Assembly: GCA_900554365.1 (NCBI GenBank)
Contig: USGY01000001.1
Location: 27,214 to 91,213 of the forward strand
Direction of reading: 5' to 3'
DNA length: 64,000 nucleotides
Origin: an uncultured Clostridium sp.
GTDB lineage: Bacteria > Bacillota > Clostridia > TANB77 > CAG-508
Part shown: positions 22,301 through 42,386 of the stretch, piece after piece
Layout: the number at the start of each line of letters is the position of its first letter
Position numbering within the stretch: position 1 is the stretch's first letter
Made by a program: the position numbers and the translations under genes
Notes under the pieces: generated by a model
Told to the model about the DNA's origin: nothing
Databases searched by the model: none
What the model saw: the letters and a program-made list of their open reading frames with translations, nothing else

Positions 22301-23612
22301 AGAACCAGTAAGTATAACTAAAAAAGCATATACAATAAAATATGATTATAAAACACCAATAACAATAACTTTATATAACACAAGTTATTCAAGCAAAAAA
22401 GAAATTAAACCAGAAGATGTAAGAAATGTGCTTTCGATAAATGGCGATGAATACTTGTATTTAAAAGATAATGCAATTAATTCAAATAAGAGAACTATAT
22501 CTGGAGAATATGCAAACTTATATAAAAATCAAGCATTAACTTTTGATGGAAAAATATATGATATATCTACAATGAAGACTATAAGCGATGATAATAATAT
22601 TGAGATATTAAAAGAAACAACACCTATTGCAGAAAGTAAAATAAATGGAAAAACAGTACAGACTTTTGCACATTTTTCAAAGACTGATTCAGATACATAT
22701 AAAGATCAACAAATATTTGTAAAAAATGGATATATGTATGCAATAGATGGACAGTTAAAAAATAAAGAAGGTGCAATAATAATTGATTCATATAATGATA
22801 AACAATATGAAACAGTTCTTGGAACAGATGGAATTATGTATGATTTATTAACAAAAATCAATTATCCAGCAAACTTTAAGAACAAGGGAATTGTTGCAAT
22901 GACAAATAATATTTCAGATAAAAATAATGTTGTTTTAGTATATTATGAAAGCGGAAAAGTGTATGGATTTAATTATATAACAGGTGAAGAAGTATATGAT
23001 AATAATGTAAAAGCTCAAAATATAAGCTTAGTTGACTATATAGCAAGTAATTTCAATGTAGGTAAAATGATGTATAATATGAGAAAATCAGATTATGTTG
23101 CGGCACAAAATTTAACATCTAAGCTAGAAAAAGTTTCAGTAGATGAAGCACGTAATCAAACAAATTCTGAGACAAATGCAGAAAGTTCAAATTCAAATTT
23201 GGTTTCAAACAATGATAATGAAAATACAAATGTAAATGCAAAACCAAATGCTAATGTAAATACAAGTACAAATACAAATGTAGATACAACTATAAATGTA
23301 AATGAGAACACTAATGCAAATGATACAGATGTTAATAATCAAATTGATAATAAATATACAACAGTATATGATGCAAGTACCCAAACTTATAAAGTATACA
23401 GTACAGCAGAATTAACAAAATCAGGTTCAGCAAAAACTGAAAGTGAAAATGAAAAAATCAATAATAATAAAGATTTAATATCTTATTATACAAATGTATC
23501 TTCTAGTACATCAAAATTTAAAAATGTTGGAATAATAGTAATAGTTATTATAGTTCTTTCTATATGTACAATATTAATAATATGGTATGAAAAAACTAGA
23601 AAAGACAATTAA
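13317..23612 (+). CDS. Giant (3431 aa) cell-surface protein. N-terminal signal-anchor, K/E-rich linker, Fn3/Ig-like modules, jelly-roll (CBM-like) domain, three ~520-aa GLUG-motif beta-helix modules, Asn-rich linker and a C-terminal TM anchor
   Basis: One uninterrupted 10.3-kb ORF with RBS AAGGAAG. TM helices at both ends. Many GNxNVGGxxG / (N/Y)VGGI(A/V)G repeats. See findings. Confidence 0.9.
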   Translation: MGKKDKNRKRKAKPIFFIVLFNFLIIISLILYIIYLRFIPYTTLEYSGYAVSGKDIISNLLNTNFDSEQNIKALQVKDQDSIYENLDSYYLGASKKDNININYPIYINNSLALYNLSPKMSLITDDFQKVQGYAGTTLTSGELYNASTLQRADYNEYILLKNSDNLYINTKDFKIKTSTNEYTIKMNSIINFTSDFITYYSLKDGEFIYNKILDIDNNSQVTIEDYNKTYTYKNFLKNLGIIKDGNKLTSNNDNKDKKEENKTQKVNEVKKENKDKNTTEDTTKNDVGNEKPVENIAEEPIQEETKQEENKQEGTSNSSEKIWIKPTVTAEQFTSNVYTAKTNIKIDDPSRVIYKAITFTFYKDDTIAFRVSSQTSGEVSVTKLLPNTKYKIEGKYQYRNKEGNLIESTILEQEITTKSADTLNSIELGMSNGQVYSNKIEINDLHVSSDVTDEAIYGVSKAEVLINDIKYSLDSSSLKKILKGEHIKYQSAEGVKSNSSCKYEIKFYDTAGNEMKLKNNTGNTVTSKKTPSVKLKISAQEVISVTVIPTLVNEDNVEINNYRYALYSDTGEMVTIGNVTGQPIEFKDLDSQKTYTIKIYADFDISDGKGVQYNQEIGNSTFVTLPLSKLGNLKLDVSYDQDTDITYNSINLKTAININKTDSRLIKILRSVNLAIKDEKGKEVTNIEMTDISALSTVDGIKNLIGDLKSNTTYNIEITAKAVQGSKEEKISTTYTLKKFLTNKLPAKMSVKNVVTTTNLIDMDIYIDDVDHSCLEDVVTVRLIDSYEKEYLPKIEPTNIKGSTKIPTNQWVRITYTGLPENEKYEFVTEAVSYNETNDTSKVQNNYKILTKDFITSGLGGNVELSGLNREKQQSCSNLIDVKSENNWYSQCFDTLSTEYTLDEANNVSFKANSKYNYGKTYTEDDNTINLKLLSNQCYLYDFSQYKGQTITLTFSAKVTETNAKVYLQKGKNIGQNLEQITGLQNNNWISIKKTLVVPEDGYVGFYLEKYQETIPKTENEEAKVQDKDYYLDLKDIKAELGAESTGYSKYVYDLYANINVKFIDENHITYDENEQNCKYYIRLKNDKGLNEEYDYTYDSKESILEKYKYKIEETNDITNYTIELVVKQYGREYQLDKVEFKYDPTNSKEIKSISSVEDFKKIQPYGSYILLNDIDLTDAGTTSEFTFGNPNISFYGNIDFNGKTIKKDTYSLTKQKDTTSYIFYKLDEKANLKNIVIDFNINNPKNRLTTKVEGIDTFIAEEDGIYSLFLYNNAKIDNAIVNLKGSTYKQRINVGLLGYRNQGTIENFVINFEGTLYGSKNLAGVCLYSEGTIQNGYVYGKGIEAIDNITIGDYRNIAGVVFQVDEAGVLQNVYNTSPIKMNHCDSTYSYAANIVYNVGYPPVINETTGAVISSKDSTATVNNVYSVRPLITTYSGYEYYGIMDSNNKEGDKGPNILNKYTSTKVKESYYFCDTIYEANDYNTKSSATALYEPGVQEVLLNANGYNQFIIDTLVNNGYYPQLNLNYCMPKQDNIKIDVTGTEIIDVLSSEVVKNNDISTLEMSDKVKGEVENYIRNNNVDLKADNLVLATFRIYNPAGTTISEINVNYMDTEIMSQSYEKKVSTVYVILKNPTSFLDEYDVSSIKSKMANGKVKESVYGENEDLGVRKVNVRFVKNISTEEEWNKINESDENGVSGLVQNYRLIKDLDFAEADVAPYITGTFEGNIDGQYKGTIHTIKNINGKFSLIKALRQGSIKNLNIENFTINTDSQYAGLIEKSDIEENIEINNVHIKNMEIVSTYGGEWTAYGSIAGYISSGSANDATSIKVQNCSVQGLNIDLENANATSIRVGGLIGYLYAYGGVDVYVTNDFAQNISINADVTSNTGVGGIVGYKGHDADEKKKIGEPNFYIQNCYTTGKINTMYRAGGILGYGLYANTYIQKCWSTLNITSKMMSGSADIGGIVGYSGTGVNNISNNIYLGNIYVSGNDVKNVNRIFGSNAGTSSYKNYAYKYQLINGEVSTNQLGATKLLTYSEIFQINTYKNLIGFDNNYTYTIEKNGAPFNLLENEYLPELNDTIGNVLSNQKLTPIDTDLKLDTITSVPSSDKTQVTVTMKFENKNNLNLTRVKIENDDMIVKDGTWNTSIDSNGLTVVSFIATPRRAFDSYKIESIYYERNGQEIEKEIATKIKLELYKGISTAQEWNEFFSGDGRTYGGQNIKITGDIDFSAVNSIEKDVVIGKLEADSVKTISGINLKSLDANSGFIKEIKTKMSNIKFENCSLQGENGGYNGIVVISRGEISNCSFNNINLDFKGSYIGAVSRTIAGSFKNITVNNVQAKGNTYVGSLCGNATALGTSSGIKGTYISVTATGNDVGGMFGCTDGRIDNVQTYQYSENGKTSSDKETSWLVKGNQNVGGNIGTYAGGGNWVTNLRITNSKISGNNTVGGNVGWGSGNGSVLTSTNNIVTGTGYHTGGNVGAHGWAFLNMTSSNNTIKGNINVGGNTGTGGWATDGNLTSENNKITGETNVGGNLGQQDHYYANANNMRSSGTNQVISGNNYVGGSVGRSVGRIKNVKVQDCTVTSRGNYTGGIIGMSEYSTPSISASNSDNYAIAGSNTKNVIVNGGNNYVGGIVGYQVGTIYGNALENSTVTAKGNNVGGIAGFYTGYIGNSASSLSSSNFFLWHSYCSNSTVKGTNNVGGIAGNIILGNIQYCYVQNTDVIASNQAAGGIVGYFYNANLNNLQYKATIKYNYVANVDEGRIVRASNSAGGVVGMVAKQLNYDKNIDTYNNIECDLVVTDIATVGNYADIGIGSVGGSEYGILQAGYMNNIYAYNCSKLNGVQIGGISEEKEAYNLLTSNELKTNIYTKNDKILDEDGKVIGNKGLNFGNSRYIYNNGYFPILKTSYNANLYWSSNELNINQKLVSIPTRNQEFTSTQALTSYSEQMDVAAFSVFNEAEELPEMYVYATGVDKLNIEFSNINSSAKFKLKTSDSVIGEPVSITKKAYTIKYDYKTPITITLYNTSYSSKKEIKPEDVRNVLSINGDEYLYLKDNAINSNKRTISGEYANLYKNQALTFDGKIYDISTMKTISDDNNIEILKETTPIAESKINGKTVQTFAHFSKTDSDTYKDQQIFVKNGYMYAIDGQLKNKEGAIIIDSYNDKQYETVLGTDGIMYDLLTKINYPANFKNKGIVAMTNNISDKNNVVLVYYESGKVYGFNYITGEEVYDNNVKAQNISLVDYIASNFNVGKMMYNMRKSDYVAAQNLTSKLEKVSVDEARNQTNSETNAESSNSNLVSNNDNENTNVNAKPNANVNTSTNTNVDTTINVNENTNANDTDVNNQIDNKYTTVYDASTQTYKVYSTAELTKSGSAKTESENEKINNNKDLISYYTNVSSSTSKFKNVGIIVIVIIVLSICTILIIWYEKTRKDN
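14280..15900 (+). repeat. About five tandem ~90-110-aa beta-sandwich (Fn3/Ig-like) modules inside the giant gene (protein-level repeats)
   Basis: Recurrent module-end signatures LLPNTKYKIEGKY, LDSQKTYTIKIYA, LKSNTTYNIEITA and LPENEKYEFVTEA. Confidence 0.45.
20160..21650 (+). repeat. Dense degenerate ~25-30-aa GLUG-like repeats (GNxNVGGxxG), predicted beta-helix
   Basis: More than 15 successive copies, for example GNQNVGGNIG, GNNTVGGNVG, GNINVGGNTG, GETNVGGNLG, GNNYVGGSVG, GNNVGGIAG and TNNVGGIAG. Confidence 0.6.
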
Positions 23613-23621
23613 TAAATAAAA

Positions 23622-23651
23622 ATGCGGTAGATAATTTCTATCGCATTTTTT
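23622..23651 (+). terminator. Rho-independent terminator after the 3431-aa gene
   Basis: 10-bp stem ATGCGGTAGA/TCTATCGCAT (one G-U pair), 5-nt loop, T5. Confidence 0.7.
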
Positions 23652-23857
23652 ATGTTTAAGTATGAAAAAATATTGTTACAAAAATGTAATGAAAATGCCA
23701 TAAAAGAATACTGAACGACGAATGTTTGTACTTTGTAAGGAAAAAAGCCAAAAAATAGAAAATACTTTAAATGTCCGGTTGAAAAAAAATTCGTAATATG
23801 ATAGACTAATAAGGAATAGATGCATTTTAAATAGCATATTTTTGAGGGAGAATAATT

Positions 23858-26800
23858 ATGAAAAAATATATATTGTTTTTTATAAGTATAGGTATAATAT
23901 TAGGTGCATTATTATTATATAATGTAGTGCATATTTCAGAAGAAAAGAAAACGACATTTAGTGAACCAGGATATATTTTAAATGGAACAACAAGCAGATA
24001 TTATTTTGGTCAAAATACAAAATACACATCATCATATAATAACAAAATAGCGTTTCATGACACAGAAGGTGAAAAAGTAACCTTAGGTGATGATAATTTT
24101 GTTCATTATAACAGTGGAAATATCGAAGCTTTGCAAGATAGTGTATTACTTGACTTAAGCAAAATAAATGATAATCCAATAGTATATTACAATGTATCTG
24201 CAAATAAAGAAATAAAAAAAGTTTCAAACAGATATAGTGTTAGAAATTTAGATTCTGATTTACAATTTGAACAAGCAATTTGGAAAATTTCTGCCAATAA
24301 ATATATCGTTTTAGGAAATAAACTAACAGCAACATTAAATAACGGAATGACAAAAGAAGCAGATGGATATATTGAAGTACAATATTCAGATAATGAAGTG
24401 GTTAGCGTATATAATCAAGATTTTAATTCACAAACAATATCTTCAAATTCTTATATAGACATTGGTAATGGAATAAAACTTAATTTAGGAACTAAAATAG
24501 TAAGCCAAAATGATGTTAATAAAATGTCTTTAGAAGATATGGTCATAAATTCAAATGATAATGTCACATTAGTTGATTTAAATAAAAAAGAAGATGAAAA
24601 TAAAGACGAGAATAATGCAACAAATACAACGAATGTAGTAAATGAAACTAATATACAAACAAACACAACAACGGCAAATAATACAAAGAACAACATTAAC
24701 AATAATAGCAATAATAACGGAAATAATAATAAAAATAATGATGTAAGTAATTCTCAACCAAATACAAATGTAACAACAACTATAACAACAAATACAACAC
24801 AAACACAACCTACTACAAATGAACCACAAAATGTAATAAATATTAATACTCCAGATATTATGTCTGAATATGTTGACGAAAATGAAAATAAAGTGGATGA
24901 AACAGTTGCGGCCAAAGAGCCTAAATTTAAATTAGAAAATCTTGAGGTAACAGCAGTAGGAATTCAGGCAGAATTACAAATAAAAGATGATGATGATACA
25001 TTATCCAAAAATGATAATGTAAAAATAAAAATAACAAACAATTCAACTGGAAAAGTTGTTTATACAGATACACAATCATATGGAACATTTAAAATTCCTA
25101 TTAATATTGAAACATTAGTGCCAGATACAAGTTATACTATAACTGCAAATGCAACATATGTTGTTAATGAAAAAAATTATACAAAAGACTTTTTATACAA
25201 AACATTTGTAACATCAACTATAGGTGCAGAACTAACCAAAGACTCATATACTAATAATTCATTAGCATTTAATGTTAATTTTTCGGACAAATTAATCGAT
25301 AGTGCAGATGTAGTATTGTTAGATGGAAATGGAAATGAAATAGCAAATAGAAAACAAACAGTAAAAAATAATGGAACACAAGAAAACATTATTTTTGATG
25401 GTTTAGTAGCAGATACAGATTATACAGTAAGACTTACTAATATAAGCTATAACGGAATAATTCAAGATGGTGACAATTGGAAAAAAGAGATAAAATGTAA
25501 AACGTTAAAAACAAAAGCAAGTATTAATCAATTAAATTATTCAGTAAATAAAAGAAATGGTACATTTACACTATATATAAATGATGTAACAGATAATAAT
25601 AGTTCAATACAAAGTTATAAATATATAATGTATAAATATACTCAAATAGAAGATGAAAATGGAAAAACCACATTAGATTATGATACTACTAATGTAGTGT
25701 ATCAAAAAGATACAAAAGATAAAGAAATTACTATCCCTGTAAATGATGAATCAAGTGATAGTGGAGTAGTAAAAGGACAATATTATGGATTTAAAGTAAT
25801 TGCTACAACATATGATAACGAGAAATATGTTGACATAGAAAGTTCAATGTGTGGTGTATTTACATTAAATGGTTCAACATTTCCAAGTGTAAAATTTGAA
25901 AGAGTTGATAGTGACTATCCACCAACAGAAATAAGAGGCTGGTTTTATATCGTAGATAATGATGGAACAATTACAGTAGATCAAAATAATCCTTTAACAA
26001 TCACATATTATAGTGATGTAGATGAAGGAGAAGTTTATGTTAAGAGAACAGGCTTAACAGCAGATGAAAGAACAACAGATACAGATGGAAATGAAGTAAT
26101 AAAAATATGGGTAGACCTAGGAGAAAAAGGAAATAATAAAAAAGGACTAAAATCAGAAACATCATATACACTTGCTGCATATGGTACAGTAAATTTGAAA
26201 GATGAAAATGGAGATTACAAAAATGCACATATAGGTAGTACAATAGTGACAACAGGTTCATATCAACCTATATCAGCTAAAATGACCACAACCAATGTTC
26301 CGACAAACTCATTTACAGTAGATTTAAGTTTACAAGGTGATGAGGTATCTAAAGAAGGACTATCTAGTGTAAATATTATGCTATACGAAGGCTCTGGAGA
26401 TATAAATACAGGTGAATATAAACATTGGAGTCGTACAATAACTGCAAATAACTTCACATCTTGCTTAAGCAATGTAAAAGGTGAAAAACAAGCAAATAGT
26501 CTTCAAGAATTGTTCTTTGACAATGAGTTGGAAGTAACACCATCATTTATAGCTGGAGGAAAAGAATCAAGTTATACAGAATTAAATTATCAAGTTATTG
26601 TAACTGCGACAGTAGATGGAACAACATATACAAACAAAATACCAGTACAATCAGCAGAAGATGAAGATGATAATACAGGAAATACTACGTATACAGACTC
26701 AAAAACAGTAGAAACATATTCAGCTGCATACATAATAGTAAAGGGAAAAGGAACAGTTGTTGAGGTGCCTGAAGAATATAAGAGAGTACAAGCAACAGCT

Positions 26801-29638
26801 ATTACAAATGAAGATGCAACTAAATATGGAATTGTAAAAGATGAAAATTTAAATAACAGTACATATGTAGGCTATTATTTAAATACAGCTTTTTCAAATA
26901 CTGGATCATTAACTGCAAAATATATAACTTATTATGCTTGGGATAAAGATGGAAATCCGGTATTAGATGAAAATGGAAAACAAATCACAAAAACAGCTAA
27001 CTTTATAAATCAAGAAAAAGCACCATCTGTTATTTTCAATTTAAAAGGTGGAACTACAGATACATCAAAAGAAGATAATGCAACAGGATTACATAGAGGA
27101 AATGCTTACTATTTCTCATATACAGTAACATATAAAGATGCTGAAGGAAATGACTTAGTATGGCCAACGTGTAAAAGTGATGAGAAAAATAAATATGATA
27201 ATAAAAGTTTAAGAACAGAAACATTATATCCAAATAAACAAGAACCAAATTTTGTAATGTTTCCAAAAACATCAGATGAAACAACAATAACATATATGTA
27301 TTCATGCACAGATCCTGATAAAGCTCTATATTATCCAGCACATAGTACAAATGAATATGGATATTTAAGTTTATTAGTAAATGGAACAACACAAAATTCA
27401 AATATAGAAGTTAAAACTGATGGAGAAATTCACGAAACAACAGTAGGAACATTGTCAGCAAATACTATGTATCAAATTGGATATACTAGAAATTTAAATA
27501 AAGCACAAACAAGTGCATATACGTTGAAAGAACTGGTAAAGCAAAAATTTGAAGGAATTGTAAATTGTAAAGACTTAAATATTGAAAATATTGTTTACAA
27601 TGATGATAGTAATCCTAATAGTGTAATAGTACAACTAACAGGAAATGATGTAAATAGAGTGGCTGCTGCACAGGTAATATTAGATAATGGACAAGAACAA
27701 GTAACAACTAAATTACTAAAATTAAATACAGACAATGGCAATTACATAAAATTAGATTTGTTACAACTATTAACTAGTGATAATGTAGCTAGATTTACAG
27801 GAAGAGATATAACATTAAAATTAAAAGTATATTATGACAATGGAAGAATTGGATTTATGACAGATGAAAGTCCTTATACAACATATGCAAATTCAGATAA
27901 TGCGTATATGAGATTAGATGGAACAAATCTTGTTGAAGACAATGCAATAAATGGTAATATATATGAATACCAATTTTATAAAAATGATGTAAATGCTCAA
28001 TTGGGATTAAAAGATTTAGAAAATATAAACAATAATGAAAATGGAAAATCAGTTGATTTACAATATTCAGGAGAAGGTTTAAAACAAAATGGCAATATAA
28101 TAGTTCAAAAACAAATTATGGCAAAAGAAATAAATGATGGAACAGAACATAAAATAAATATACACACTATTCGTCTAGGATTAAAAATGAATAGTATTAC
28201 AACAACAATATCAACTGCTAATGTAAGTGCAACTATAATTAATCCAGTAAATGTTTCTATTAATGGACTTACAATGGAAATATGGCATTCAAAAGATGCG
28301 AATGCAGCGCCAAACTGGAATTCAGCACAAACAAAAGTAATAGATCCAAGCCAAATGTCAAATATCACATTAGATAATTTAGCACCAGCAGAATATTATT
28401 ATATAAGATTTAAATATTTAGATAATAATGCATATGTATATGTATATTTATATGATAAAGATTCTGGAGAAATGGGAAAAGTTTATTCATTTGAAACATT
28501 AGCAACAATTGGAATTGAAAATGTAAATGTAGAGTATGAGGCACAAAATTACAAAAATAAATACTTAAATATCTCATATAATGTAAATAATGATAGATCA
28601 ACAATGTATGCTAAGACTAAATATACATTTTACAAGAAAGATGGAACAACAAAAATTAATCTTTCAGATGCGAATATACAAAAGACAGATGAGCAAGCAG
28701 AATATAAAATTGTTGATGGAAGTTTAGTTGTATCTAATACAAAGGGAATGGACAATCAAAAATTTGATAGCGTAAAAGAACAAATAAAAATAAGTCCAGA
28801 CAGTAATCCATTTACAATGGGGGATGACTATGTATTAAAAATAACACCAATAGTTATAATTAATGAAACTCGAGAATATGAAATTGATAGTGAAGTAGGA
28901 GAATTTAATGTAAAATCTCTTCAAAACCCATCTATTGGTCTGAAGATGGAAAGAAAACAATTAACAAATGATAGCAAAGTACTAAGAACAACAGTATCAA
29001 TAAAAGATCAAGATGCATTAATTAGTGGAACCGATTGGGGTGAATATACTTTACGAATATATAAATACAAAGATAATGTAGATAAAGCGGTAGAAGTAAA
29101 CACATATGACAAAAGTCAAGGTGGAAATAACATAACAGGAAAAAAATTAAATTTAAAAGAAAATGCAACAAATTATACAATATATGTACAATCTCAAGAT
29201 ACAGACTATACATATAACTATATCGCTAAATTAGAGTTAAAATATGACAAAAATAACAATGGAAAAGATTTAGAAAACCATACAGAAAAATATACATTGA
29301 AAGCTATTTCTAATGATCAAGATGTTGCAATTGGTAGTGCAACATTAGTGCCAAATGGAAATAAATGTGAAATACGTTTTTATGATAGTTACTATAACAT
29401 CAAAAAAATTAATAGAATAGATTATACAGTATATAATTTAAAAAGTACTTACAATCAAACAGGATCATATAAGCCAGAATGGATATCAGCAAGTCAAGAT
29501 CAAAATGTAATTTATTTTAAAACAGAATTACCAATTGATTTTATAGAAAAAGCAACATATATTATTAAACTAAACTTATATGTAGGAAATACTTTGGTAG
29601 GACAAGTTGATACTACATTTATAAATGAGGATAAATAA
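23858..29638 (+). CDS. Giant (1926 aa) membrane-anchored surface protein with N-terminal TM, Asn/Thr-rich linker and many Fn3/Ig-like modules
   Basis: RBS GAGGGAG. TM YILFFISIGIILGALLLYNVV. Module signatures LVPDTSYTITANA, LVADTDYTVRLTN, LKSETSYTLAAYG and LAPAEYYYIRFKY. Confidence 0.9.
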   Translation: MKKYILFFISIGIILGALLLYNVVHISEEKKTTFSEPGYILNGTTSRYYFGQNTKYTSSYNNKIAFHDTEGEKVTLGDDNFVHYNSGNIEALQDSVLLDLSKINDNPIVYYNVSANKEIKKVSNRYSVRNLDSDLQFEQAIWKISANKYIVLGNKLTATLNNGMTKEADGYIEVQYSDNEVVSVYNQDFNSQTISSNSYIDIGNGIKLNLGTKIVSQNDVNKMSLEDMVINSNDNVTLVDLNKKEDENKDENNATNTTNVVNETNIQTNTTTANNTKNNINNNSNNNGNNNKNNDVSNSQPNTNVTTTITTNTTQTQPTTNEPQNVININTPDIMSEYVDENENKVDETVAAKEPKFKLENLEVTAVGIQAELQIKDDDDTLSKNDNVKIKITNNSTGKVVYTDTQSYGTFKIPINIETLVPDTSYTITANATYVVNEKNYTKDFLYKTFVTSTIGAELTKDSYTNNSLAFNVNFSDKLIDSADVVLLDGNGNEIANRKQTVKNNGTQENIIFDGLVADTDYTVRLTNISYNGIIQDGDNWKKEIKCKTLKTKASINQLNYSVNKRNGTFTLYINDVTDNNSSIQSYKYIMYKYTQIEDENGKTTLDYDTTNVVYQKDTKDKEITIPVNDESSDSGVVKGQYYGFKVIATTYDNEKYVDIESSMCGVFTLNGSTFPSVKFERVDSDYPPTEIRGWFYIVDNDGTITVDQNNPLTITYYSDVDEGEVYVKRTGLTADERTTDTDGNEVIKIWVDLGEKGNNKKGLKSETSYTLAAYGTVNLKDENGDYKNAHIGSTIVTTGSYQPISAKMTTTNVPTNSFTVDLSLQGDEVSKEGLSSVNIMLYEGSGDINTGEYKHWSRTITANNFTSCLSNVKGEKQANSLQELFFDNELEVTPSFIAGGKESSYTELNYQVIVTATVDGTTYTNKIPVQSAEDEDDNTGNTTYTDSKTVETYSAAYIIVKGKGTVVEVPEEYKRVQATAITNEDATKYGIVKDENLNNSTYVGYYLNTAFSNTGSLTAKYITYYAWDKDGNPVLDENGKQITKTANFINQEKAPSVIFNLKGGTTDTSKEDNATGLHRGNAYYFSYTVTYKDAEGNDLVWPTCKSDEKNKYDNKSLRTETLYPNKQEPNFVMFPKTSDETTITYMYSCTDPDKALYYPAHSTNEYGYLSLLVNGTTQNSNIEVKTDGEIHETTVGTLSANTMYQIGYTRNLNKAQTSAYTLKELVKQKFEGIVNCKDLNIENIVYNDDSNPNSVIVQLTGNDVNRVAAAQVILDNGQEQVTTKLLKLNTDNGNYIKLDLLQLLTSDNVARFTGRDITLKLKVYYDNGRIGFMTDESPYTTYANSDNAYMRLDGTNLVEDNAINGNIYEYQFYKNDVNAQLGLKDLENINNNENGKSVDLQYSGEGLKQNGNIIVQKQIMAKEINDGTEHKINIHTIRLGLKMNSITTTISTANVSATIINPVNVSINGLTMEIWHSKDANAAPNWNSAQTKVIDPSQMSNITLDNLAPAEYYYIRFKYLDNNAYVYVYLYDKDSGEMGKVYSFETLATIGIENVNVEYEAQNYKNKYLNISYNVNNDRSTMYAKTKYTFYKKDGTTKINLSDANIQKTDEQAEYKIVDGSLVVSNTKGMDNQKFDSVKEQIKISPDSNPFTMGDDYVLKITPIVIINETREYEIDSEVGEFNVKSLQNPSIGLKMERKQLTNDSKVLRTTVSIKDQDALISGTDWGEYTLRIYKYKDNVDKAVEVNTYDKSQGGNNITGKKLNLKENATNYTIYVQSQDTDYTYNYIAKLELKYDKNNNGKDLENHTEKYTLKAISNDQDVAIGSATLVPNGNKCEIRFYDSYYNIKKINRIDYTVYNLKSTYNQTGSYKPEWISASQDQNVIYFKTELPIDFIEKATYIIKLNLYVGNTLVGQVDTTFINEDK

Positions 29639-29671
29639 CAAAATATATAAAAGGTAGGAGGTGATGCCCTT

Positions 29672-31521
<1,850 letters not shown>

Positions 31522-31547
31522 TAATGTAAAAAGAAAGGAAACGCATT

Positions 31548-32387
31548 ATGACAAGTTTAGTAATTGCGGCGGTAATATTAACTGTAATAATGCTTGCATT
31601 TGTATTCATACTTTTTAGAAATATCATAAGAAAGATGGATGATAATGCAAAAAAATACTTTGTTAATAAAATGCAAGGATATGATTATATTTTAGAAGAA
31701 AAGCAAGAAAAACTAGAAAAAATAAAAAAAGAAATAAATGATTTAGAGGAATCAAATTCAAATATCTTGAAAAGTACTGATGAAAACATAGAGTTTAATA
31801 AAGAAATACATAAGAATAATGAAAAAATTCAGGAAAAATATAAAGAAGATGAGGATATACCTTTAAGAAGAGAAATACGCCAACCAATAAATTATAATCT
31901 AAATGTACCTGATTACAGGGAAACGCAGTTTTTTAATAATTATAAAGAAGTAAGACAAGCATTTACAATTAATAATGAAAAAATCATAAAAGATTTTATA
32001 GCTAAACATAAAAATTTAAAAGAAGAAAAAGAATATAAAGCACTAAAAAAATTAAGAGGAAAATTTGATCAAGATACAATTTATGGATGTTTAACACTTG
32101 ATAAAAAAGAACAAAAAGAATTACTTGAAGAAGCATTAACAGCAACAGAAAAAAAGCTAGTTAAATTTAAAGAACTTTCAGAAAATCCAGATTTTAGTGT
32201 GGAAACATTAATAAAATATATAGATGATAGAAAAGAAAAAATTGATCCAACTATATATATATATACAAATGTATTAGAAAAAAAATATGAAGCTATGGAT
32301 AGTAACATAGTAAACAAACAATATAATAATATGTCTGAGGGTATAATTATTAAATATAGAAATAAAATTTATGATTATAGTATATAA
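31548..32387 (+). CDS. Peripheral-stalk protein, b-like N-terminus (TM plus coiled coil) fused to a delta/OSCP-like C-terminus
   Basis: N-terminal TM then a K/E-rich helix. The C-terminus EGIIIKYRNKIYDYSI resembles the canonical delta end GG(I/V)x(I/V)xxGxx(I/V)(Y/I)DGS(I/V). It sits between c and alpha, where atpF-atpH normally lie. Confidence 0.6.
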   Translation: MTSLVIAAVILTVIMLAFVFILFRNIIRKMDDNAKKYFVNKMQGYDYILEEKQEKLEKIKKEINDLEESNSNILKSTDENIEFNKEIHKNNEKIQEKYKEDEDIPLRREIRQPINYNLNVPDYRETQFFNNYKEVRQAFTINNEKIIKDFIAKHKNLKEEKEYKALKKLRGKFDQDTIYGCLTLDKKEQKELLEEALTATEKKLVKFKELSENPDFSVETLIKYIDDRKEKIDPTIYIYTNVLEKKYEAMDSNIVNKQYNNMSEGIIIKYRNKIYDYSI

Positions 32388-32405
32388 GTAAGGAAGGATA
32401 AAATA

Positions 32406-33737
32406 ATGGATACACATATAAAAAACCTTGTAAATGAAAAGGTATCAAAAATAAAAAGTAAAAATAATATTTTTGATTCAGGAAAGGTTATAAAGATAAA
32501 AGATTATATAGTAGAAGTATCAGGATTAGAAAATGTAATGTACTTTGAAAAAGTCATTATTATGGGAAAAGGAATGGGATATGTTAATGCTATATATGAA
32601 AATTCTGTAATTATAGCTATAGTAAAAGAAGATAAAAAAATAGAAATAGGAGATGTAGTTAATTCCACTGGAGAAATATTTAAAGCTATTTTTTCAGAAG
32701 ATGCTATGGGGAGAATGGTAGATATATTCGGTGTAGACCAATTATCAGGAAAGCCATTTGAGAATTTTAAGTACATAGATATAGAAAAGCCTAATGTACC
32801 AATTATGGATAGAACTTCTGTATGTAGACCATTGCAAACAGGAATAGCTGGAATAGATCTAATATATCCAATAGGAAAAGGACAAAGACAATTAATTATA
32901 GGAGACAAAAAAACAGGAAAAACACAAATAGCATTAGATACAATAGTAAATCAGGGATGTGTTGAACAAGAAAATGGACAAGTAATATGTATTTATGTAG
33001 CAGTTGGAAAAACTAAAAAAGAAATTAAATCTATTTATAATGAATTATTAAAACGTAATGCACTTTCTTATACTATAATGGTAGTTGCAACAAATGATAA
33101 TAAAACACCTGTAATTAGTCTTATTCCTTATGTTGGAATGTCAATTGCAGAAGAATACATGAAAAAGAAAAGAGATGTATTAGTCGTAATAGATGACCTA
33201 AAAAAACATGCCGAAGTGTATAGAGAAATAAGTTTGGTATCAAACAAAACACCTGGTAGAGAAGCATATCCAGCAGATATATTTTATACACATTCAAGAT
33301 TGTTAGAAAAAGGATGTCAACATAAAAATGGAGGATCAATAACAATACTTCCAATTGTTGAAACTAAAGGTGGAGATATTACAGATTATATATCTACTAA
33401 TATCATATCAATAACAGATGGACAAATAGTTTTATCTAATAAAGAATTTTTAAAAGGACAAAAACCTGCGATTGATTATGGAATTTCAGTATCAAGATTA
33501 GGAGGAGCGGTACAAACTCCTAGAATGAAGAAAATTGGTGCAACTGTTAGATTAAAACTTTTAAATTACTTAGAAACAAAAGATGTATATGAATTAGCCA
33601 ATACAGATGAACTAAGTGATGATTTAAAAGAAAAGCTAAAAGAAGGTAAAAAAATAGAAATGCTACTTAGACAAGAAAAATTCGAACCATTTACAAGTGA
33701 AGAAATCTTAGATAGATTCGAAGATTTTGAAGAATAA
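32406..33737 (+). CDS. atpA: F1 ATPase alpha subunit-like protein (short, 443 aa)
   Basis: GDKKTGKTQIALDTIVNQ (canonical GDRQTGKT), ISVSRLGGAVQ and ITILPIVETKGGDITDYISTN. Confidence 0.88.
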   Translation: MDTHIKNLVNEKVSKIKSKNNIFDSGKVIKIKDYIVEVSGLENVMYFEKVIIMGKGMGYVNAIYENSVIIAIVKEDKKIEIGDVVNSTGEIFKAIFSEDAMGRMVDIFGVDQLSGKPFENFKYIDIEKPNVPIMDRTSVCRPLQTGIAGIDLIYPIGKGQRQLIIGDKKTGKTQIALDTIVNQGCVEQENGQVICIYVAVGKTKKEIKSIYNELLKRNALSYTIMVVATNDNKTPVISLIPYVGMSIAEEYMKKKRDVLVVIDDLKKHAEVYREISLVSNKTPGREAYPADIFYTHSRLLEKGCQHKNGGSITILPIVETKGGDITDYISTNIISITDGQIVLSNKEFLKGQKPAIDYGISVSRLGGAVQTPRMKKIGATVRLKLLNYLETKDVYELANTDELSDDLKEKLKEGKKIEMLLRQEKFEPFTSEEILDRFEDFEE

Positions 33738-33762
33738 ATTACTATAAAATAAGAGGTGTAAA

Positions 33763-36237
<2,475 letters not shown>

Positions 36238-36247
36238 GTGGGATAAG

Positions 36248-36805
36248 ATGGAATTAGTATTATATTATATTGTTGAAAGTAGAAATTTATTAATCTCATT
36301 CTTAATACTAACATTTGTACTTGGGATAATTGTATATAGCTTAATAAAAAACTTTAAGCAAAATAAAAAAATGAAAGTAGTTATTTATGGATTGTTTTTG
36401 AAATTCACTAATGTTGATATTTTGAAATTATCTATAATAGTGGTAAAAACGTTTTTAGTTTTCTATGCTATAATGGTAACGAATGAATTAGTAATGTGGT
36501 TGTGTATAGCAATGATTACTATTCTTACAAGTATATATATTATTTGCGAATTCAAAAGAGTAATATATGAGGTTATATATACATCAATACAAGCATTAGT
36601 AATATATTTAATATATTTAATAAACAGTTATATGATGGAAGTTGAATATCTAAATGTAGTAATGGGAGTAAAAGTTTGTTTAATAGTATTTGAAGTAATA
36701 CTTTCAATATATTTGATGTTTAAAAATATAAACATAATATCAGAAGAACGAGTGACAAAAAACTTTAAAAAAGAATCAAAGAAAATAGCGAAAGGAACGA
36801 ATTAG
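36248..36805 (+). CDS. Polytopic (~5 TM) membrane protein of unknown function ending the ATPase-like module
   Basis: ATG at 36248 after AGGTGGG. Hydrophobic segments contain several Glu residues and one Arg. No recognisable a-subunit motif. Confidence 0.65.
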   Translation: MELVLYYIVESRNLLISFLILTFVLGIIVYSLIKNFKQNKKMKVVIYGLFLKFTNVDILKLSIIVVKTFLVFYAIMVTNELVMWLCIAMITILTSIYIICEFKRVIYEVIYTSIQALVIYLIYLINSYMMEVEYLNVVMGVKVCLIVFEVILSIYLMFKNINIISEERVTKNFKKESKKIAKGTN

Positions 36806-36808
36806 ATT

Positions 36809-37579
36809 ATGAAACAACAAACAAAAAGAAAACCTGTAAAAGGAAAAGCAATAAAAAAAGATAAAATTTTAAAAATTGCAATTGTAATTGTTGCGATAAT
36901 GCTTGCTTTAGTAATTTATAAAATATTTGATACATTAGTAATAAATAAAGAACATTATGATTTATCAGGGCAAACATATTACCAATATTTTAGTGGAATT
37001 GAACAAGAGTATTCTGGAAAGATAGATGTTGAGGAAAAAGATGATGAAACTAAATTAGTTTTAGGAAATGGTCAAGTTGTGTATTTAGACTCAACTCCAA
37101 TGTATTATAAAGATATTTTAGGTAAAAGCTTATTACCTAAAGAAATGGAATTAGTAGTACCAGACAGCGGAACATATAAATTAAGCAAATTTACAAATGT
37201 AATAGAAGAAAATAATACAATAAAATTAAAGAAATTAAATAGCAAAAAAACAAAAGACTTAGACAATGGATTTTTATTTGATGGAAATGATTTATACTTT
37301 TTCTTAGATGATACAACTGTATCAGTTGGTGATAAAGATTATGAGTTACCAGCTTTATCATATGCTATAGTTAATTATAAAACAAATGTAGAATTATATA
37401 ATTATGACACAAATGAATATACAATGATTCAAGATGAAGAATCTTTAAAAAGTGATGTTACAGCAACAAATAAAGCTAAAAATTACACAATTAATATGAG
37501 TTTAGATTCATTAAAAACAGAAAAAAGCAATCAATTACTTATTACCAATATAAATAATTTAAAAGAATATGATTATTAG
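36809..37579 (+). CDS. 256-aa N-terminally membrane-anchored protein with beta-rich ectodomain; function unknown
   Basis: Basic N-terminus then TM ILKIAIVIVAIMLALVIYKIF. Starts 3 nt after the preceding stop. Confidence 0.7.
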   Translation: MKQQTKRKPVKGKAIKKDKILKIAIVIVAIMLALVIYKIFDTLVINKEHYDLSGQTYYQYFSGIEQEYSGKIDVEEKDDETKLVLGNGQVVYLDSTPMYYKDILGKSLLPKEMELVVPDSGTYKLSKFTNVIEENNTIKLKKLNSKKTKDLDNGFLFDGNDLYFFLDDTTVSVGDKDYELPALSYAIVNYKTNVELYNYDTNEYTMIQDEESLKSDVTATNKAKNYTINMSLDSLKTEKSNQLLITNINNLKEYDY

Positions 37580-37588: not shown

Positions 37589-37617
37589 TTGACAAATCAA
37601 CATAAATAATATAAAAT
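37589..37617 (+). promoter_or_regulatory. Sigma-A-like promoter (TTGACA, 17-nt spacer, TAAAAT) for the valS leader
   Basis: Consensus -35 and a 5/6 match at -10. Confidence 0.45.
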
Positions 37618-37624
37618 ATAAATA

Positions 37625-37868
37625 TATTTGAAAGGCAAAGAAAAAGAGGAGTATATTTGTAATTGGTTATAGAGAGAAGAAGTCTTAGGCTGTAAGCTTC
37701 TTTAACATAAGCAAATAGAAGGTAGCTTTGGAGCTGATATATAGAAATAGTAGTAAATATATCCGGTTAAGAACCGTTAAAACGTAAATGAGATTATTAT
37801 TAAAATAATAAATTAAGGTGGTACCGTGATTTATTCGCCCTTATGTTTTTATACATAAGGGATTTTTT
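37625..37868 (+). promoter_or_regulatory. T-box riboswitch leader controlling valS
   Basis: AGAGA (stem I base) at about 37671. Conserved T-box sequence AAGGTGGTACCGTG at 37815-37828. Terminator hairpin CCCTTATG...CATAAGGG (37838-37861) plus a T-run. A candidate Val specifier GUA lies at 37722-37724. Confidence 0.8.
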
Positions 37869-37901: not shown

Positions 37902-40577
37902 ATGTTAAATGATAAGTACAACCCAAAAGAATTTGAAGATAAATTGTATGAACATTGGGAAAAATCAGGATATTTTAAACCTAGTATGGATAAAACAAAA
38001 GAAAGTTATTGTATTATGATGCCACCACCAAATGTAACTGGTAAATTACATATGGGACATGCATTAGATGGAACATTACAAGATATATTAATTCGTTTTA
38101 AAAGAATGCAAGGATATAATACATTATGGTTACCAGGATCAGATCATGCATCAATATCAACTGAGATGAAAGTTGTTCAAAAATTAAAGGCAGAAGGAAA
38201 AACTAAACAAGAAATAGGAAGAGAGAAATTCTTAGAAGAAACTTGGGATTGGACAAGATTATATGGTGGAGAGATTCAAAAACAACAACGTAAATTAGGT
38301 TGCTCATGTGATTGGGATAGACGTAGATTCACATTAGATAAAGGTTTATCAGATGCTGTTTTAGAAGAATTTATAAATTTATATAATGATGGATATATTT
38401 ATAAAGGAACAAGGATGGTAAATTGGTGCCCTAATTGCAATACTGCAATATCAGATGCAGAAGTTGAATATAAAGAAGAAGCATCACATTTATGGCATTT
38501 AAGATATAAAATAAAAGATGAAGATAGATATGTAGAAGTTGCAACAACAAGACCTGAAACAATGCTTGGAGATACTGCAGTTGCAGTAAATCCTAAAGAT
38601 AAAAGATATGCTGATATTGTAGGAAAAACTTGTATAGTACCAATTGTAAATAGAGAAATTCCTATAATAGCAGATGAATTTGTAGAAACAGAATTTGGAA
38701 CAGGATGTGTAAAAATTACACCATCACACGATCCAAATGATTATCAAGCAGGAAAAAGACATAATCTAGAATTTATAGAAGTATTTGACCAAAAAACTAT
38801 AATGGGAGATTTAATGCCAGAAGTAAAAGGAATGACTGCAATAGATGCGAGACCAATAATTGTAGAAAAATTAAAACAATTGGGAGCATTAGTATCAATT
38901 GAAGATTATACACATAATGTTGGAAAATGTGAGAGATGTAAAGCAACAGTAGAACCAAGAATTTCTGAACAATGGTTTGTAAAAATGCAAGAACTAGTTA
39001 AACCAGCAATTGATGCAGTAAAAAATGGTGACATAAAATTTGTACCAAAAAGATATGAAAAAACATATTTTAATTGGTTAGAAAATATACAAGATTGGTG
39101 TATTTCAAGACAATTATGGTGGGGACATAGAATACCAGCATATTATTGTGATGAATGTGGACATATAAATATAGCCAAAGCAGAACCAGAAAAATGCGAA
39201 AAATGTGGAAGTACTAAATTGCATCAAGATCCAGATACATTAGATACATGGTTTAGTTCAGCATTATGGCCATTTTCAACATTAGGATGGCCAAATAAAA
39301 ATGCAGAAGATTTAAAAACATTTTATCCAACAAATGTATTAGTAACTGGATATGATATAATATTCTTCTGGGTTGCAAGAATGGTATTTTCAGGATTATA
39401 TGCAATGAAAGAAAAACCATTTAGTGATGTGCTAATTCATGGAATTGTACGTGATAGTCAAGGAAGAAAAATGTCAAAAACATTAGGAAATGGTGTTGAC
39501 CCAATTGAAGTAATAAATAAATATGGTGCAGATAGCATGAGATTTTCTGTATTATCAGGAACAACTATGGGAAATGATATAAAATATATGCCTGAAAAAT
39601 TAGAGCAAGCTTCAAATTTTGCAAATAAGATATGGAATGCAGCAAAATTTATAATAATGAATAGACCTGATGAAAAAGAAATTATAAAATTTGCAAATGA
39701 AAATTATGAAGACAAATCATTTAAATCTAATGCTTTAAAAGTAGAGGATAAATGGATAATAAGCAAATTAAATAAATTAATAGATGATATAACTAAAAAT
39801 ATAGAAAATTATGATTTAGGTGTAGCATTAGATAATTTATATGGATTTATATGGAATGAATTTTGCGATTGGTATATAGAAATGGTAAAATCAAGATTAT
39901 ATAGTGAAGATAAATCTGAAAAAATAATAGTTAGTTTCGTACTAGATTATGTATTTAGAACAACTATGAAATTATTACATCCATTTATGCCATTTGTAAC
40001 ATCAGAAATTTACGAGAATTTGGTAAAATATGATGATAAGGAATTAATGGTATCTGAATGGCCAAAATCAAGTGAATTATTAAATTATGAAAAAGAAGAA
40101 AATACAGTAGAAAAAGTAAAACAAATAATTGTTGAAATCAGAAATATAAGAGCTACTAAAAATATTCATCCAAGTAAGAAATCAGAATTAATATTTGTTC
40201 CAACTAAAGATGTAGAAGAAACAAGTAAACAATTAAAAGAATTAGAGCAAATGCTATTAAAATTAGGATTTGGAAATAAAATAACAATAAAAGAAAACAG
40301 CAAAAATATCGATAAAAATACAATAAATATAATGGTAGATGGATTAGAAGTTTATATATCATTAGAAGGATTAATTGACATAAAAGAAGAAATCGAAAGA
40401 TTATCACAAGAAAAAAATAAAATGCTAAGTGAAATAGCAAGATGCGAAAAAATGTTATCAAATCCTGGTTTTGTAAACAAAGCTCCAAAAGCTAAAGTTG
40501 AAGAGGAACAAAGAAAATTAGAAAATTACAAAGAATTGCTAAACAAAATAGAAACAAAACTAAATGAATATAAATAA
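37902..40577 (+). CDS. valS: Valine--tRNA ligase
   Basis: 891 aa. PPPNVTGKLHMGHA (HIGH motif), KMSKTLGN (KMSKS motif) and a C-terminal coiled coil. Confidence 0.97.
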   Translation: MLNDKYNPKEFEDKLYEHWEKSGYFKPSMDKTKESYCIMMPPPNVTGKLHMGHALDGTLQDILIRFKRMQGYNTLWLPGSDHASISTEMKVVQKLKAEGKTKQEIGREKFLEETWDWTRLYGGEIQKQQRKLGCSCDWDRRRFTLDKGLSDAVLEEFINLYNDGYIYKGTRMVNWCPNCNTAISDAEVEYKEEASHLWHLRYKIKDEDRYVEVATTRPETMLGDTAVAVNPKDKRYADIVGKTCIVPIVNREIPIIADEFVETEFGTGCVKITPSHDPNDYQAGKRHNLEFIEVFDQKTIMGDLMPEVKGMTAIDARPIIVEKLKQLGALVSIEDYTHNVGKCERCKATVEPRISEQWFVKMQELVKPAIDAVKNGDIKFVPKRYEKTYFNWLENIQDWCISRQLWWGHRIPAYYCDECGHINIAKAEPEKCEKCGSTKLHQDPDTLDTWFSSALWPFSTLGWPNKNAEDLKTFYPTNVLVTGYDIIFFWVARMVFSGLYAMKEKPFSDVLIHGIVRDSQGRKMSKTLGNGVDPIEVINKYGADSMRFSVLSGTTMGNDIKYMPEKLEQASNFANKIWNAAKFIIMNRPDEKEIIKFANENYEDKSFKSNALKVEDKWIISKLNKLIDDITKNIENYDLGVALDNLYGFIWNEFCDWYIEMVKSRLYSEDKSEKIIVSFVLDYVFRTTMKLLHPFMPFVTSEIYENLVKYDDKELMVSEWPKSSELLNYEKEENTVEKVKQIIVEIRNIRATKNIHPSKKSELIFVPTKDVEETSKQLKELEQMLLKLGFGNKITIKENSKNIDKNTINIMVDGLEVYISLEGLIDIKEEIERLSQEKNKMLSEIARCEKMLSNPGFVNKAPKAKVEEEQRKLENYKELLNKIETKLNEYK

Positions 40578-40743: not shown

Positions 40744-41058
40744 ATGGATTCAAAATTTTACGATAAAGATAAGCTTCTAGTGTTAAAAATTACTGATGAA
40801 ATTGATGACCATAATGTACAAAATATAAGGAGGAAAGCTGATTATGAAATGGAAAGATACATGCCTAAAAGAGTTGTATTTGATTTTGATAGTGTTACTT
40901 TTATGGATAGTGCCGGAATCGGACTAATAATTGGGAGGTATAAATTTGCAAATATGATTGGAGCTAAATTAGAACTTAGTAATTTAACCCAAAGTGTAAG
41001 AAGAATTTTTGATATGAGTGGTATTTTAAAATTAATACCAACTGTTGATTTATATTAA
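40744..41058 (+). CDS. spoIIAA: Anti-sigma-F factor antagonist (STAS domain)
   Basis: 104 aa. The FMDSAGIGLIIGRYK phospho-serine region. First position of spoIIAA-AB-sigF. Confidence 0.9.
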   Translation: MDSKFYDKDKLLVLKITDEIDDHNVQNIRRKADYEMERYMPKRVVFDFDSVTFMDSAGIGLIIGRYKFANMIGAKLELSNLTQSVRRIFDMSGILKLIPTVDLY

Positions 41059-41110
41059 TAATAGTTTATGGGAACTATAAAAACCCAAATATATTTTATA
41101 AGGAAAGAGT

Positions 41111-41596
41111 ATGTTGAATAATAAAAACATTGATAATGAAATGAAATTAGAATTTGTAAGCAAATCTGCTAATGAAGCATTTGCAAGATTATCTGTCGCT
41201 GCATTTGCAGCTCAATTAGATCCTACTATTGAAGAATTAGCAGATATAAAAACAGCTGTGTCAGAAGCTGTAACAAATGCAATAATCCATGGATATGAGA
41301 AAAAAACAGGAATAGTAAAAGTCTCATCATGGATAGCTGGAGATACAATTGTTATAGAAATATCAGATAAGGGAAAGGGAATTGAAAATATAGAGCAAGC
41401 TAAGGAACCTTTGTATACTACAAAACCTAATTTAGAAAGGTCAGGTATGGGTTTTACAATTATGGAAAGTTTTATGGACACAATGGAAGTAAAATCAGTT
41501 GTAGGACTTGGAACCAAAGTTACAATGTCAAAAAAGATAAAGCCAAAAGAAGAAAATGAAGAAGATGACTTTCATATGCTAGCAGAAGAAGAATAA
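41111..41596 (+). CDS. spoIIAB: Anti-sigma-F factor (serine protein kinase)
   Basis: [11 protein letters not shown] (N-box), DKGKGI and ERSGMGFT (G-boxes). Confidence 0.92.
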
Positions 41597-41638
41597 ATCA
41601 GAAAGGAGTAAATGGCTTAAAAAAGCCATTGAAAAAAT

Positions 41639-42368: not shown

Positions 42369-42386
42369 ACAAAGTGAGTGATAAAA

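Follow-up and report, generated by a model that had tools for sequence, protein, structure and literature searches.

A gene cluster of gut Firmicutes that pairs a probably ion-uncoupled F1Fo-like ATPase with giant surface proteins

In mollicutes, F1-like ATPases drive systems of the cell surface (PMC11864180, PMC12994834), and those of the F1-like X0 kind have been described as specific to mycoplasmas (PMC3369863, PMC12994834). We examined a 64,000-nt stretch of DNA (the window; G+C about 26%) from an uncultured Clostridium sp. (TANB77; CAG-508; assembly GCA_900554365.1, contig USGY01000001.1, positions 27,214 to 91,213 of the forward strand), within which a run of genes for an F1Fo-like ATPase is joined to genes for giant, membrane-anchored surface proteins. 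All coordinates below are window positions, and the features of this cluster lie on the plus strand. It is very likely, in our judgement, that the cluster encodes an ion-uncoupled derivative of F1Fo dedicated to the co-encoded surface proteins. An initial annotation of this DNA had proposed a dedicated ATP-hydrolysis module that energises, positions or exports the giants, in an arrangement not previously described. The conserved synteny, the alpha phylogeny, the model cut-offs and the absence of subunit a all favour the dedicated module; full-text literature searches found no such cluster; and the energising, positioning or exporting role is one that we infer.

Eleven open reading frames (ORFs) had been claimed between 23858 and 37579, whereas ten were found, which is also the number in the initial annotation's own gene list; the coordinates that it gave for them were exact. 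They encode, in order, a giant surface protein of 1926 amino acids (aa), a 526-aa protein anchored by a transmembrane (TM) segment, a c-like proteolipid, a peripheral stalk protein, alpha-, gamma-, beta- and epsilon-like subunits, a 5-TM protein and a 256-aa TM-anchored protein. The successive junctions (+33, +17, +26, +18, +25, +8, -11, -11 and +3 nt) ran from an 11-nt overlap to a 33-nt gap, as had been reported, and the motifs that had been quoted, including GDKKTGKT (alpha) and DELSNED, were all present in the products. To this set we add a second giant surface protein of 3431 aa (13317–23612), encoded just 5' of the terminator that precedes the cluster.

Subunits of the ATPase

The c-like proteolipid (83 aa, 31270–31521) scored 34.7 bits on Pfam ATP-synt_C (cut-off 24). 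The c-like proteins of the window and of related loci were aligned against reference c sequences (E. coli, Bacillus PS3 and Ilyobacter tartaricus), of which the E. coli copy matches the atpE annotated in locus L085. A carboxylate in c is indispensable for translocation of H+ or Na+. In each of the 64 distinct sequences of the family, the column that holds it (E. coli D61, PS3 E56, I. tartaricus E65) was occupied by A, T, V, S or N (Ala in the window protein), and 63 of the 64 had no acidic residue within nine positions to either side. The alternative helix-1 position that is able to substitute (E. coli A24) was hydrophobic, with no carboxylate. The GxGxGxG motif of c was invariant in the family, as was the Arg-Asn-Pro (RNP) loop, which is the region that contacts gamma and epsilon in F-ATPases.

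The stator side of the ion path was likewise not recognisable. None of the ten products matched ATP-synt_A or any atpB model, in agreement with the initial annotation, which had noted no a subunit and no AtpI; the operon-encoded subunit a of a canonical enzyme, with its essential Arg, was absent from the cluster. The product encoded after epsilon, the 5-TM protein (192 aa, 36227–36805), has five predicted TM helices, and an ORF of this kind occupied the same position in all loci. No sequence match was found for it in Pfam, NCBIfam or PDB, its family showed no invariant Arg, and profile alignment with E. coli subunit a by hhalign gave a probability of 0.1%. Structures were predicted with AlphaFold2 (AF2) and searched with Foldseek against 350,542 PDB chains. 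The AF2 model of the 5-TM protein (predicted local distance difference test score, pLDDT, 81.5) comprised a TM helix, a short amphipathic helix and two helical hairpins, a layout that recalls subunit a; by the positive-inside rule the N-terminus is placed outside and the C-terminus inside. Several subunit-a chains were among the top 20 Foldseek matches, all with E of at least 1 and hence not significant. The 5-TM protein may be a decayed subunit a.

The epsilon-like beta-sandwich (97 aa, 35944–36237) is encoded directly 3' of beta. Its position, its size and a pattern of the G-x-L-x-I-x-P type upheld the call made in the initial annotation; the sequence matches were weak (NCBIfam, E = 0.008; PDB profile, PS3 epsilon, E = 0.3), as was the comparison with the E. 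coli epsilon profile. The protein stops at about residue 82 of the 139 of E. coli epsilon, and the family median is 94 aa. A canonical epsilon has two domains, a beta-sandwich and a C-terminal helical regulatory domain, and the latter is absent here. Taken together, a c subunit without its carboxylate and an epsilon without its inhibitory C-terminal domain speak for an enzyme that only hydrolyses ATP, with no ion translocation, and the complex would no longer be an ion pump or an ATP synthase.

The catalytic head gave a different picture. The assignments of c, alpha, beta and gamma in the initial annotation held up in family searches (c, ATP-synt_C, E = 2e-8; alpha and beta, ATP-synt_ab, E of at most 1e-70; gamma, ATP-synt, E = 4e-27). 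In the beta-like catalytic subunit (465 aa from a TTG start, 34557–35954) the Lys and Thr of the P-loop, the Glu and Arg of GER(S/T)REG and the Walker B Asp were invariant over 79 family members, and in the alpha-like subunit (443 aa, 32406–33737) the Arg finger was invariant over 67; the catalytic site is, as judged by these residues, intact. The P-loop GDKKTGKT of the alpha-like subunit recurs throughout the family and is its signature. The gamma-like central shaft (261 aa, 33763–34548) scored 96 bits on Pfam ATP-synt. The window alpha keeps the N-terminal delta-binding segment (the alignment starts at query residue 5 and PS3 alpha residue 8) and is missing about 70 C-terminal residues of canonical alpha.

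The C-terminal end of alpha differs among carriers. The alphas of Bacilli and of RF39 type (loci L040, L044, L049, L053, L064, L071 and L077; P0394–P0399) bear a C-terminal extension of 200–900 aa in which no domain could be recognised; the C-terminal domain is instead shortened in Clostridia and Lachnospiraceae.

An exhaustive search of 1.84 billion cluster representatives with alpha returned family members at 381–594 bits (48–66% identity), and the next matches scored at most 327 bits (at most 44% identity). In a neighbour-joining tree the 36 family alphas were monophyletic and none of 63 alphas of canonical length fell inside the group; this distance-based tree of unlabelled representatives rejects nesting in an orthodox clade, as the initial annotation had expected, and does not place the family. 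Alpha scored below every curated alpha model (TIGR00962, 422 bits against a cut-off of 484; PRK13343, 440 against 554), and beta passed TIGR01039 marginally (472 bits against 463); E. coli AtpA and AtpD scored 869 and 875 bits on TIGR00962 and TIGR01039, respectively.

The peripheral stalk appears as a single 279-aa protein (31548–32387) that resembles a fusion of b and delta. Its AF2 model (pLDDT 75.5) has an N-terminal TM segment continued as a long helix (residues 2–71), a disordered and variable linker, a helical bundle (125–231) and a beta element (236–276), and the first 39 or so Foldseek matches (best E 4.8e-3, probability 0.99) were all F-type delta/OSCP chains, the mycobacterial b-delta fusion among them. 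By sequence comparison no match to E. coli b was found; the alignment of its conserved C-terminal stretch, EGIxIxYxNKxYDYSI, to the C-terminal signature of E. coli delta had a probability of just 1.5%. The assignment to delta comes from the structure search, since the sequence comparisons with b and delta gave little. We regard the 279-aa protein, with moderate confidence, as a predicted b-delta fusion stalk, in which the b and delta/OSCP parts of a canonical peripheral stalk would be combined in one chain.

Surface proteins, conserved synteny and genomic setting

The proteins of 3431, 1926, 526 and 256 aa have in common a single N-terminal hydrophobic anchor. In the 1926-aa protein (giant surface protein 1, 23858–29638) it spans residues 5–23, and in the 3431-aa protein (giant surface protein 2) a TM or signal anchor at residues 15–33 is accompanied by a C-terminal TM segment at 3404–3422, by which that protein may be fixed in the membrane at its two ends and form a giant loop. 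The 526-aa protein (29672–31252) has a linker rich in S, T and N and an fn3-like C-terminal part; the 256-aa ectodomain protein (36809–37579) had a counterpart in 79 loci. Searches of Pfam, NCBIfam and PDB gave no match for the 1926-aa protein, no family match for the 256-aa protein and nothing except weak fn3 for the window copy of the 3431-aa protein. The initial annotation had called the 1926-aa product a repeat protein, a label that was not borne out: no internal BLAST self-matches and no significant tandem repeats (Tandem Repeats Finder) were found. The giants have a high content of N, T, S, K and Y, and homologues elsewhere carry modules absent from the window copies, namely an ALK/LTK glycine-rich domain (PF12810, 1.7e-45), GLUG motifs and a collagen-like repeat (L053:13637-20767, L081:11-5941 and L081:13930-20781). 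Both the composition and the collagen-like, GLUG and glycine-rich modules of the homologues fit with the giants being fibrous extracellular proteins.

The juxtamembrane regions were compared by hhalign, profile against profile on family alignments, with and without the TM helix, and segments from the middles of the giants served as controls. Between the 1926-aa and 526-aa regions the probability was 97% (E 1.7e-11) when the TM helix was included and 95.7% (E 9e-9) when it was removed. For the 256-aa protein against the N-terminal regions of the 1926-aa and 3431-aa proteins, the probability was 94% (E about 1e-7) when the helix was kept and 38–59% (E about 1e-4) after its removal; the controls gave at most 0.6% (E of at least 0.1). 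By these comparisons the membrane-proximal regions of the anchored proteins are related, and the 256-aa protein accordingly looks like a bare anchor and docking module, of which the other proteins would be extended versions.

The spread of the system was surveyed with the gamma-like protein as anchor. Scanning of one genome for each of 185,579 species gave a relative in 259 species genomes, and 1357 homologues were present in the protein collection; the locus counts given here refer to the best 80 loci of the 259 matching species genomes. The loci came from uncultured Clostridia (including Clostridium sp. CAG:354 and Ca. Merdicola), Bacilli, RF39-type metagenome-assembled genomes and many Lachnospiraceae, among them Roseburia, Butyrivibrio and the cultured Lachnospiraceae bacterium G11. 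We take CAG-354 and Ca. Merdicola to belong to TANB77/CAG-508 of GTDB. In every sufficiently long locus the series opened with a giant of about 1800–2000 aa and a second protein of roughly 500 aa, went on with c, b-delta, alpha, gamma, beta, epsilon and the 5-TM protein, and closed with a protein of roughly 250 aa followed by a giant exceeding 3000 aa; the same order was seen in metagenome contigs. By phmmer all eight smaller genes were present in 68 of the 80 loci, and at least one giant in 74, the six exceptions being short contigs. The 1926-aa homologue was detected as the first gene of the cluster in 54 loci (phmmer), and its position was kept in others, for example by a 1977-aa ORF of L081; a 3431-aa homologue lay directly 3' of the 256-aa gene in 50. 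In the subclade of the window the gene for the protein of more than 3000 aa has shifted from the 3' end to the 5' side. The expectation that relatives would keep the ATPase genes beside genes for giant TM-anchored proteins was borne out in all sufficiently long loci among the 80, across Clostridia, Bacilli and Lachnospiraceae.

Two loci carry titles that point outside Firmicutes, L060 (JBQKHF010000004.1, "Thermoguttaceae bacterium") and L082 (JAISEO010000078.1, "Coriobacteriales bacterium"); their layouts are near-identical to Lachnospiraceae clusters, and the titles probably represent mislabelling or a binning error and not an occurrence beyond Firmicutes. Ca. Faecenecus has been placed in RF39 (PMC8035907).

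All ten window genes had low ratios of nonsynonymous to synonymous substitution (dN/dS 0.05–0.18 against the nearest relative), lowest for alpha and beta (0.05) and highest for the 5-TM protein (0.18), with 0.12 for the 1926-aa gene in comparison with L005; by this measure all ten are under purifying selection. At larger distances the surface proteins were the fastest-diverging.

The signals around the cluster largely agree with the initial annotation. The strong terminator that it had placed ahead of the cluster is an intrinsic terminator at 23618–23650 (14-pair stem followed by a T run), which ends the 3431-aa gene. The leader is about 207 nt, close to the 206 nt that had been claimed, and contains a TG-extended, promoter-like site (TTGAAA-17-TG-TAGACT, 23779–23807; a consensus match only) and a GAGGGAG ribosome-binding site at about 23845. 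Inside the cluster no terminator-like hairpin was found, again as stated before; the next such site on the plus strand is the terminator of a T-box leader (37838–37861). This leader (RF00230, 121 bits; 37589–37861), with its own promoter-like site and terminator, forms the 3' boundary of the ATPase unit and precedes a valyl-tRNA synthetase-like gene (37902–40577).

The neighbourhood is an ordinary chromosomal one for a spore-former (uvrA, gpr, ytxC, pfk, valS, spoIIAA/AB-sigF, spoIID), and sporulation genes lie on both flanks, at 5830–8526 and 40744–43403 (gpr, ytxC, spoIIAA/spoIIAB/sigF-like, spoIID); because they flank the region, the host is taken to be one of the spore-forming Clostridia with a small genome of 26% G+C. 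No further atp or ntp gene was found in the 64-kb window. A mobile-element origin was considered and dropped, the gamma-like protein having no tblastn match in 72,556 plasmids or 50,697 phages. A 213-aa ORF at 12521–13162 was likewise rejected as an extra gene of the system, its adjacency to the cluster not being kept in relatives. Elsewhere in the window the N- and C-terminal halves of an Mbeg1-like family (PF11187) are on adjoining ORFs (59051–59557 and 59664–60119), as in a split or frameshifted gene.

Proposed mechanism, rival explanations and meaning

In the arrangement that we propose, the alpha3beta3 head, the gamma/epsilon shaft, the c-ring and a membrane-anchored b-delta stator would be retained, and what would be lost is the ion path (the c carboxylate and the subunit a with its essential Arg) together with the epsilon domain that restrains hydrolysis. 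The enzyme would run in the hydrolysis direction only. ATP hydrolysis would turn, or at least cyclically strain, gamma, epsilon and the c-ring against the b-delta stator, of which the 5-TM protein is possibly a part, and the work would be delivered across the membrane to the four single-pass surface proteins (3431, 1926, 526 and 256 aa), for which the related juxtamembrane domain and N-terminal anchor would serve as the docking module. The output would most likely be a conformational cycling of the giants, whether for movement, for adhesion and release or for substrate handling. The same logic has been proposed for Type 3 with MIB-MIP and is established in outline for gliding by the G1-ATPase, with Gli349/Gli521 (PMC12994834, PMC11864180). 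That the ATPase mechanically energises the co-encoded surface proteins by ATP hydrolysis, without ion coupling, is a function which the gene content makes somewhat more probable than its competitors taken together.

Several points weigh against this account. The system is known from genes and sequences alone. The juxtamembrane likeness is strong only between the 1926-aa and 526-aa proteins and is modest for the 256-aa and 3431-aa proteins once the TM helix is left out (E about 1e-4). Co-transcription of the ten ATPase and surface genes is inferred from their spacing and the absence of terminators, and the 3431-aa gene of the window is a transcription unit of its own. The delta-like call comes from a model of medium confidence with a Foldseek E of only about 5e-3. 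A c-ring without its carboxylate could be a static membrane anchor instead of a rotor, and the adjacency of ATPase and surface genes could represent assembly, export or co-regulation instead of energising.

If the adjacency does reflect export, the F1-like head would power the threading, insertion or folding of the giants, as FliI/FliJ do in type III export, and no later movement would be involved. Such an engine would suit an ATPase that strictly adjoins proteins of 1900–3400 aa and partners that all four bear N-terminal anchors; moreover, F1 and type III secretion system ATPases are homologous, and FliI/SctN appeared as secondary NCBIfam matches. We nevertheless hold it unlikely, though worth serious attention: the anchors resemble ordinary Sec/YidC signal anchors, the c-ring, gamma/epsilon shaft and peripheral stalk that have been kept are parts for rotation and not for substrate translocation, no export-gate homologue was found among the products in Pfam or NCBIfam, and the central pore of a c-ring is narrow and plugged with lipid. 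A motor for gliding or surface motility, in which the giants would act as legs or cranks in a Firmicute equivalent of the Mycoplasma mobile machinery, would be a special case of the model above. The partners are similar in size and anchoring to Gli123/Gli349/Gli521, the 3431-aa protein being anchored at both ends and the 1926-aa protein N-terminally; the carriers, however, are mostly walled gut anaerobes, and several of the Lachnospiraceae are flagellated. An F1-derived ATPase is encoded alongside the giants, as in gliding (PMC11864180), yet no sequence similarity to any gliding protein was seen, the NCBIfam gliding models scored far below their cut-offs, nothing pointed to the dimeric chains of the G1-ATPase, and beta is without the N-terminal extension of MMOB1670, all of which makes this special case decidedly improbable.

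It might also be asked if the cluster is simply a fast-evolving housekeeping F-type ATP synthase or ion pump, with its subunit a encoded elsewhere or supplied by the 5-TM protein. Beta does pass the atpD cut-off, if marginally, the core gene order is canonical, the 5-TM layout is like that of subunit a (with subunit-a chains in the non-significant Foldseek list), and the ProAD survey hints that the rotary ATPase of some carrier clades may be this one alone (PMC11738941). Against this, none of the 64 family members has the c carboxylate, a conserved Arg is lacking in the 5-TM protein, alpha falls under every alpha cut-off, the cluster is also present in Lachnospiraceae of Roseburia and Butyrivibrio type, and the constant linkage to giant surface proteins would be left unexplained; we consider a housekeeping enzyme very improbable. 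A decaying relic, or a static membrane scaffold without turnover, would account for the loss of the ion-path residues, of the epsilon C-terminal domain and of part of the alpha C-terminal domain. It is, if anything, less credible still, for alpha and beta have a dN/dS of 0.05 and no gene exceeds 0.18, the catalytic residues are invariant over 67–79 species, and the reading frames are intact and their order conserved in the loci of relatives.

A dedicated, ion-uncoupled ATPase, the reading that we prefer, would have several consequences. The powering of surface systems by F1-derived ATPases has been held a speciality of mycoplasmas, and the cluster suggests a far wider use, in at least 259 species-level genomes; the carriers include abundant human gut commensals and uncultured clades with reduced genomes. 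With rotor and stator kept and the ion path deleted, the cluster is a natural experiment on what a c-ring can do beyond serving as an ion turbine, and cultured carriers exist (e.g., Lachnospiraceae bacterium G11). The giants are singled out as uncharacterised surface proteins of gut bacteria and as probable moving parts of a machine. The name "F0F1 ATP synthase" was found on annotated genes of the family, and such annotation of the cluster misleads metabolic reconstruction. In the ProAD survey a complete rotary ATPase requires alpha, beta, gamma, a and c, and the gut clades TANB77, CAG-508 and UBA660 are apparently without one (PMC11738941); this lack fits with there being no atpB elsewhere in such genomes. 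The cluster may explain the apparent lack of a functional rotary ATPase in TANB77, CAG-508 and UBA660, which may be the very clades that carry it as their only rotary-ATPase derivative. More speculatively, a c-ring stripped of ion coupling might act as a mechanical transmission that moves the giants through paralogous single-pass anchors; this would be a new transmembrane force-transducing class, widespread in Firmicutes of the human and animal gut (TANB77, RF39, Roseburia, Butyrivibrio), maybe the sole rotary-ATPase derivative in some reduced genomes, and could represent an intermediate between F1Fo and the mycoplasma F1-like X0. We offer this extended picture tentatively, as a possibility that is doubtful as a whole.

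Comparison with described rotary ATPases

By sequence the closest system is canonical F1Fo of the Bacillus PS3 or Caldalkalibacillus type (about 40–44% identity for alpha), with which the catalytic residues and gene order are shared; the nearest solved structures are likewise Bacillus-type F1 (alpha 337 bits, beta 390), ahead of the M. mobile G1-ATPase (282 and 312; beta, PDB 9io5). The initial annotation had held that the cluster fits neither the housekeeping nor the N-ATPase operon. This stood as far as atpI and atpB are concerned, both being absent, and did not stand for the core, which is collinear with canonical atpE-F-H-A-G-D-C. Unlike canonical F1Fo, the cluster has no c carboxylate and no epsilon C-terminal domain, b and delta are fused, alpha is shortened, and genes for giant surface proteins always flank it. 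The N-ATPases are comparable in being a divergent F-type operon that occurs besides or in place of the housekeeping one; they differ in their order (atpDCQRBEFAG) and in having AtpQ, AtpR, subunit a and an ion-binding c. Scores on the alt_F1F0 models of this group were 368, 411, 32 and 16 bits, all below the cut-offs of 750.5, 752, 282 and 131.

The mollicute systems are closest in their setting. Type 2, the G1-ATPase (MMOB1660/1670), is also F1-like and is tied genetically and functionally to giant surface proteins (PMC11864180, PMC8406192). It forms cytoplasmic chains of dimers that have no membrane subunits of Fo type, and its beta begins with a long extension, unlike the window beta, whose match begins at position 230 of the Type 2 model; the scores of alpha and beta on NF045863 and NF045858 (389 and 382 bits) were short of the cut-offs of 600 and 850. 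Type 3, the F1-like X0 ATPase (MSC_0618/0619) on which the antibody-cleaving MIB-MIP system depends, similarly places alpha, beta, gamma and epsilon next to membrane-anchored surface proteins in low-GC, host-associated bacteria, and is similarly presumed to be driven by hydrolysis and to pass energy through the membrane (PMC3369863, PMC12994834). The window cluster keeps c, b-delta and the alpha N-terminus; none of c, b and delta is part of Type 3, whose alpha is without the delta-binding N-terminal helix. The Type 3 partners, a 12-TM protein, a 2-TM protein of 87 kDa and a small cytoplasmic protein, are unrelated to the 5-TM and single-pass partners found here. The scores of alpha and beta on NF045936 and NF045934 were 316 and 405 bits, against cut-offs of 520 and 570. 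No MIB- or MIP-like domain was found in the cluster products (Pfam, NCBIfam), and none of the accessory products matched a Type 2 or Type 3 accessory family (NCBIfam). A specific kinship with Types 2 and 3 was considered and rejected, as those models give E. coli AtpA and AtpD equal or greater scores.

The stalk has its nearest parallel in the mycobacterial b-delta protein, which also combines a membrane-anchored b helix and a delta/OSCP domain in one chain and was among the Foldseek matches (7nkd_d and related chains); it differs in having no sequence similarity to the window protein and in belonging to a normal proton-coupled synthase with an extra b'. Because of the nearest relatives, the tree and the model scores, we regard the cluster as a separate lineage from Firmicute-type F1Fo that lies outside Type 2, Type 3 and the N-type. 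The kind of system is already known, in that F1-derived ATPases have been recruited to surface machinery before; what is new, as judged by the membership criteria of each described family, is that this cluster is outside them all.

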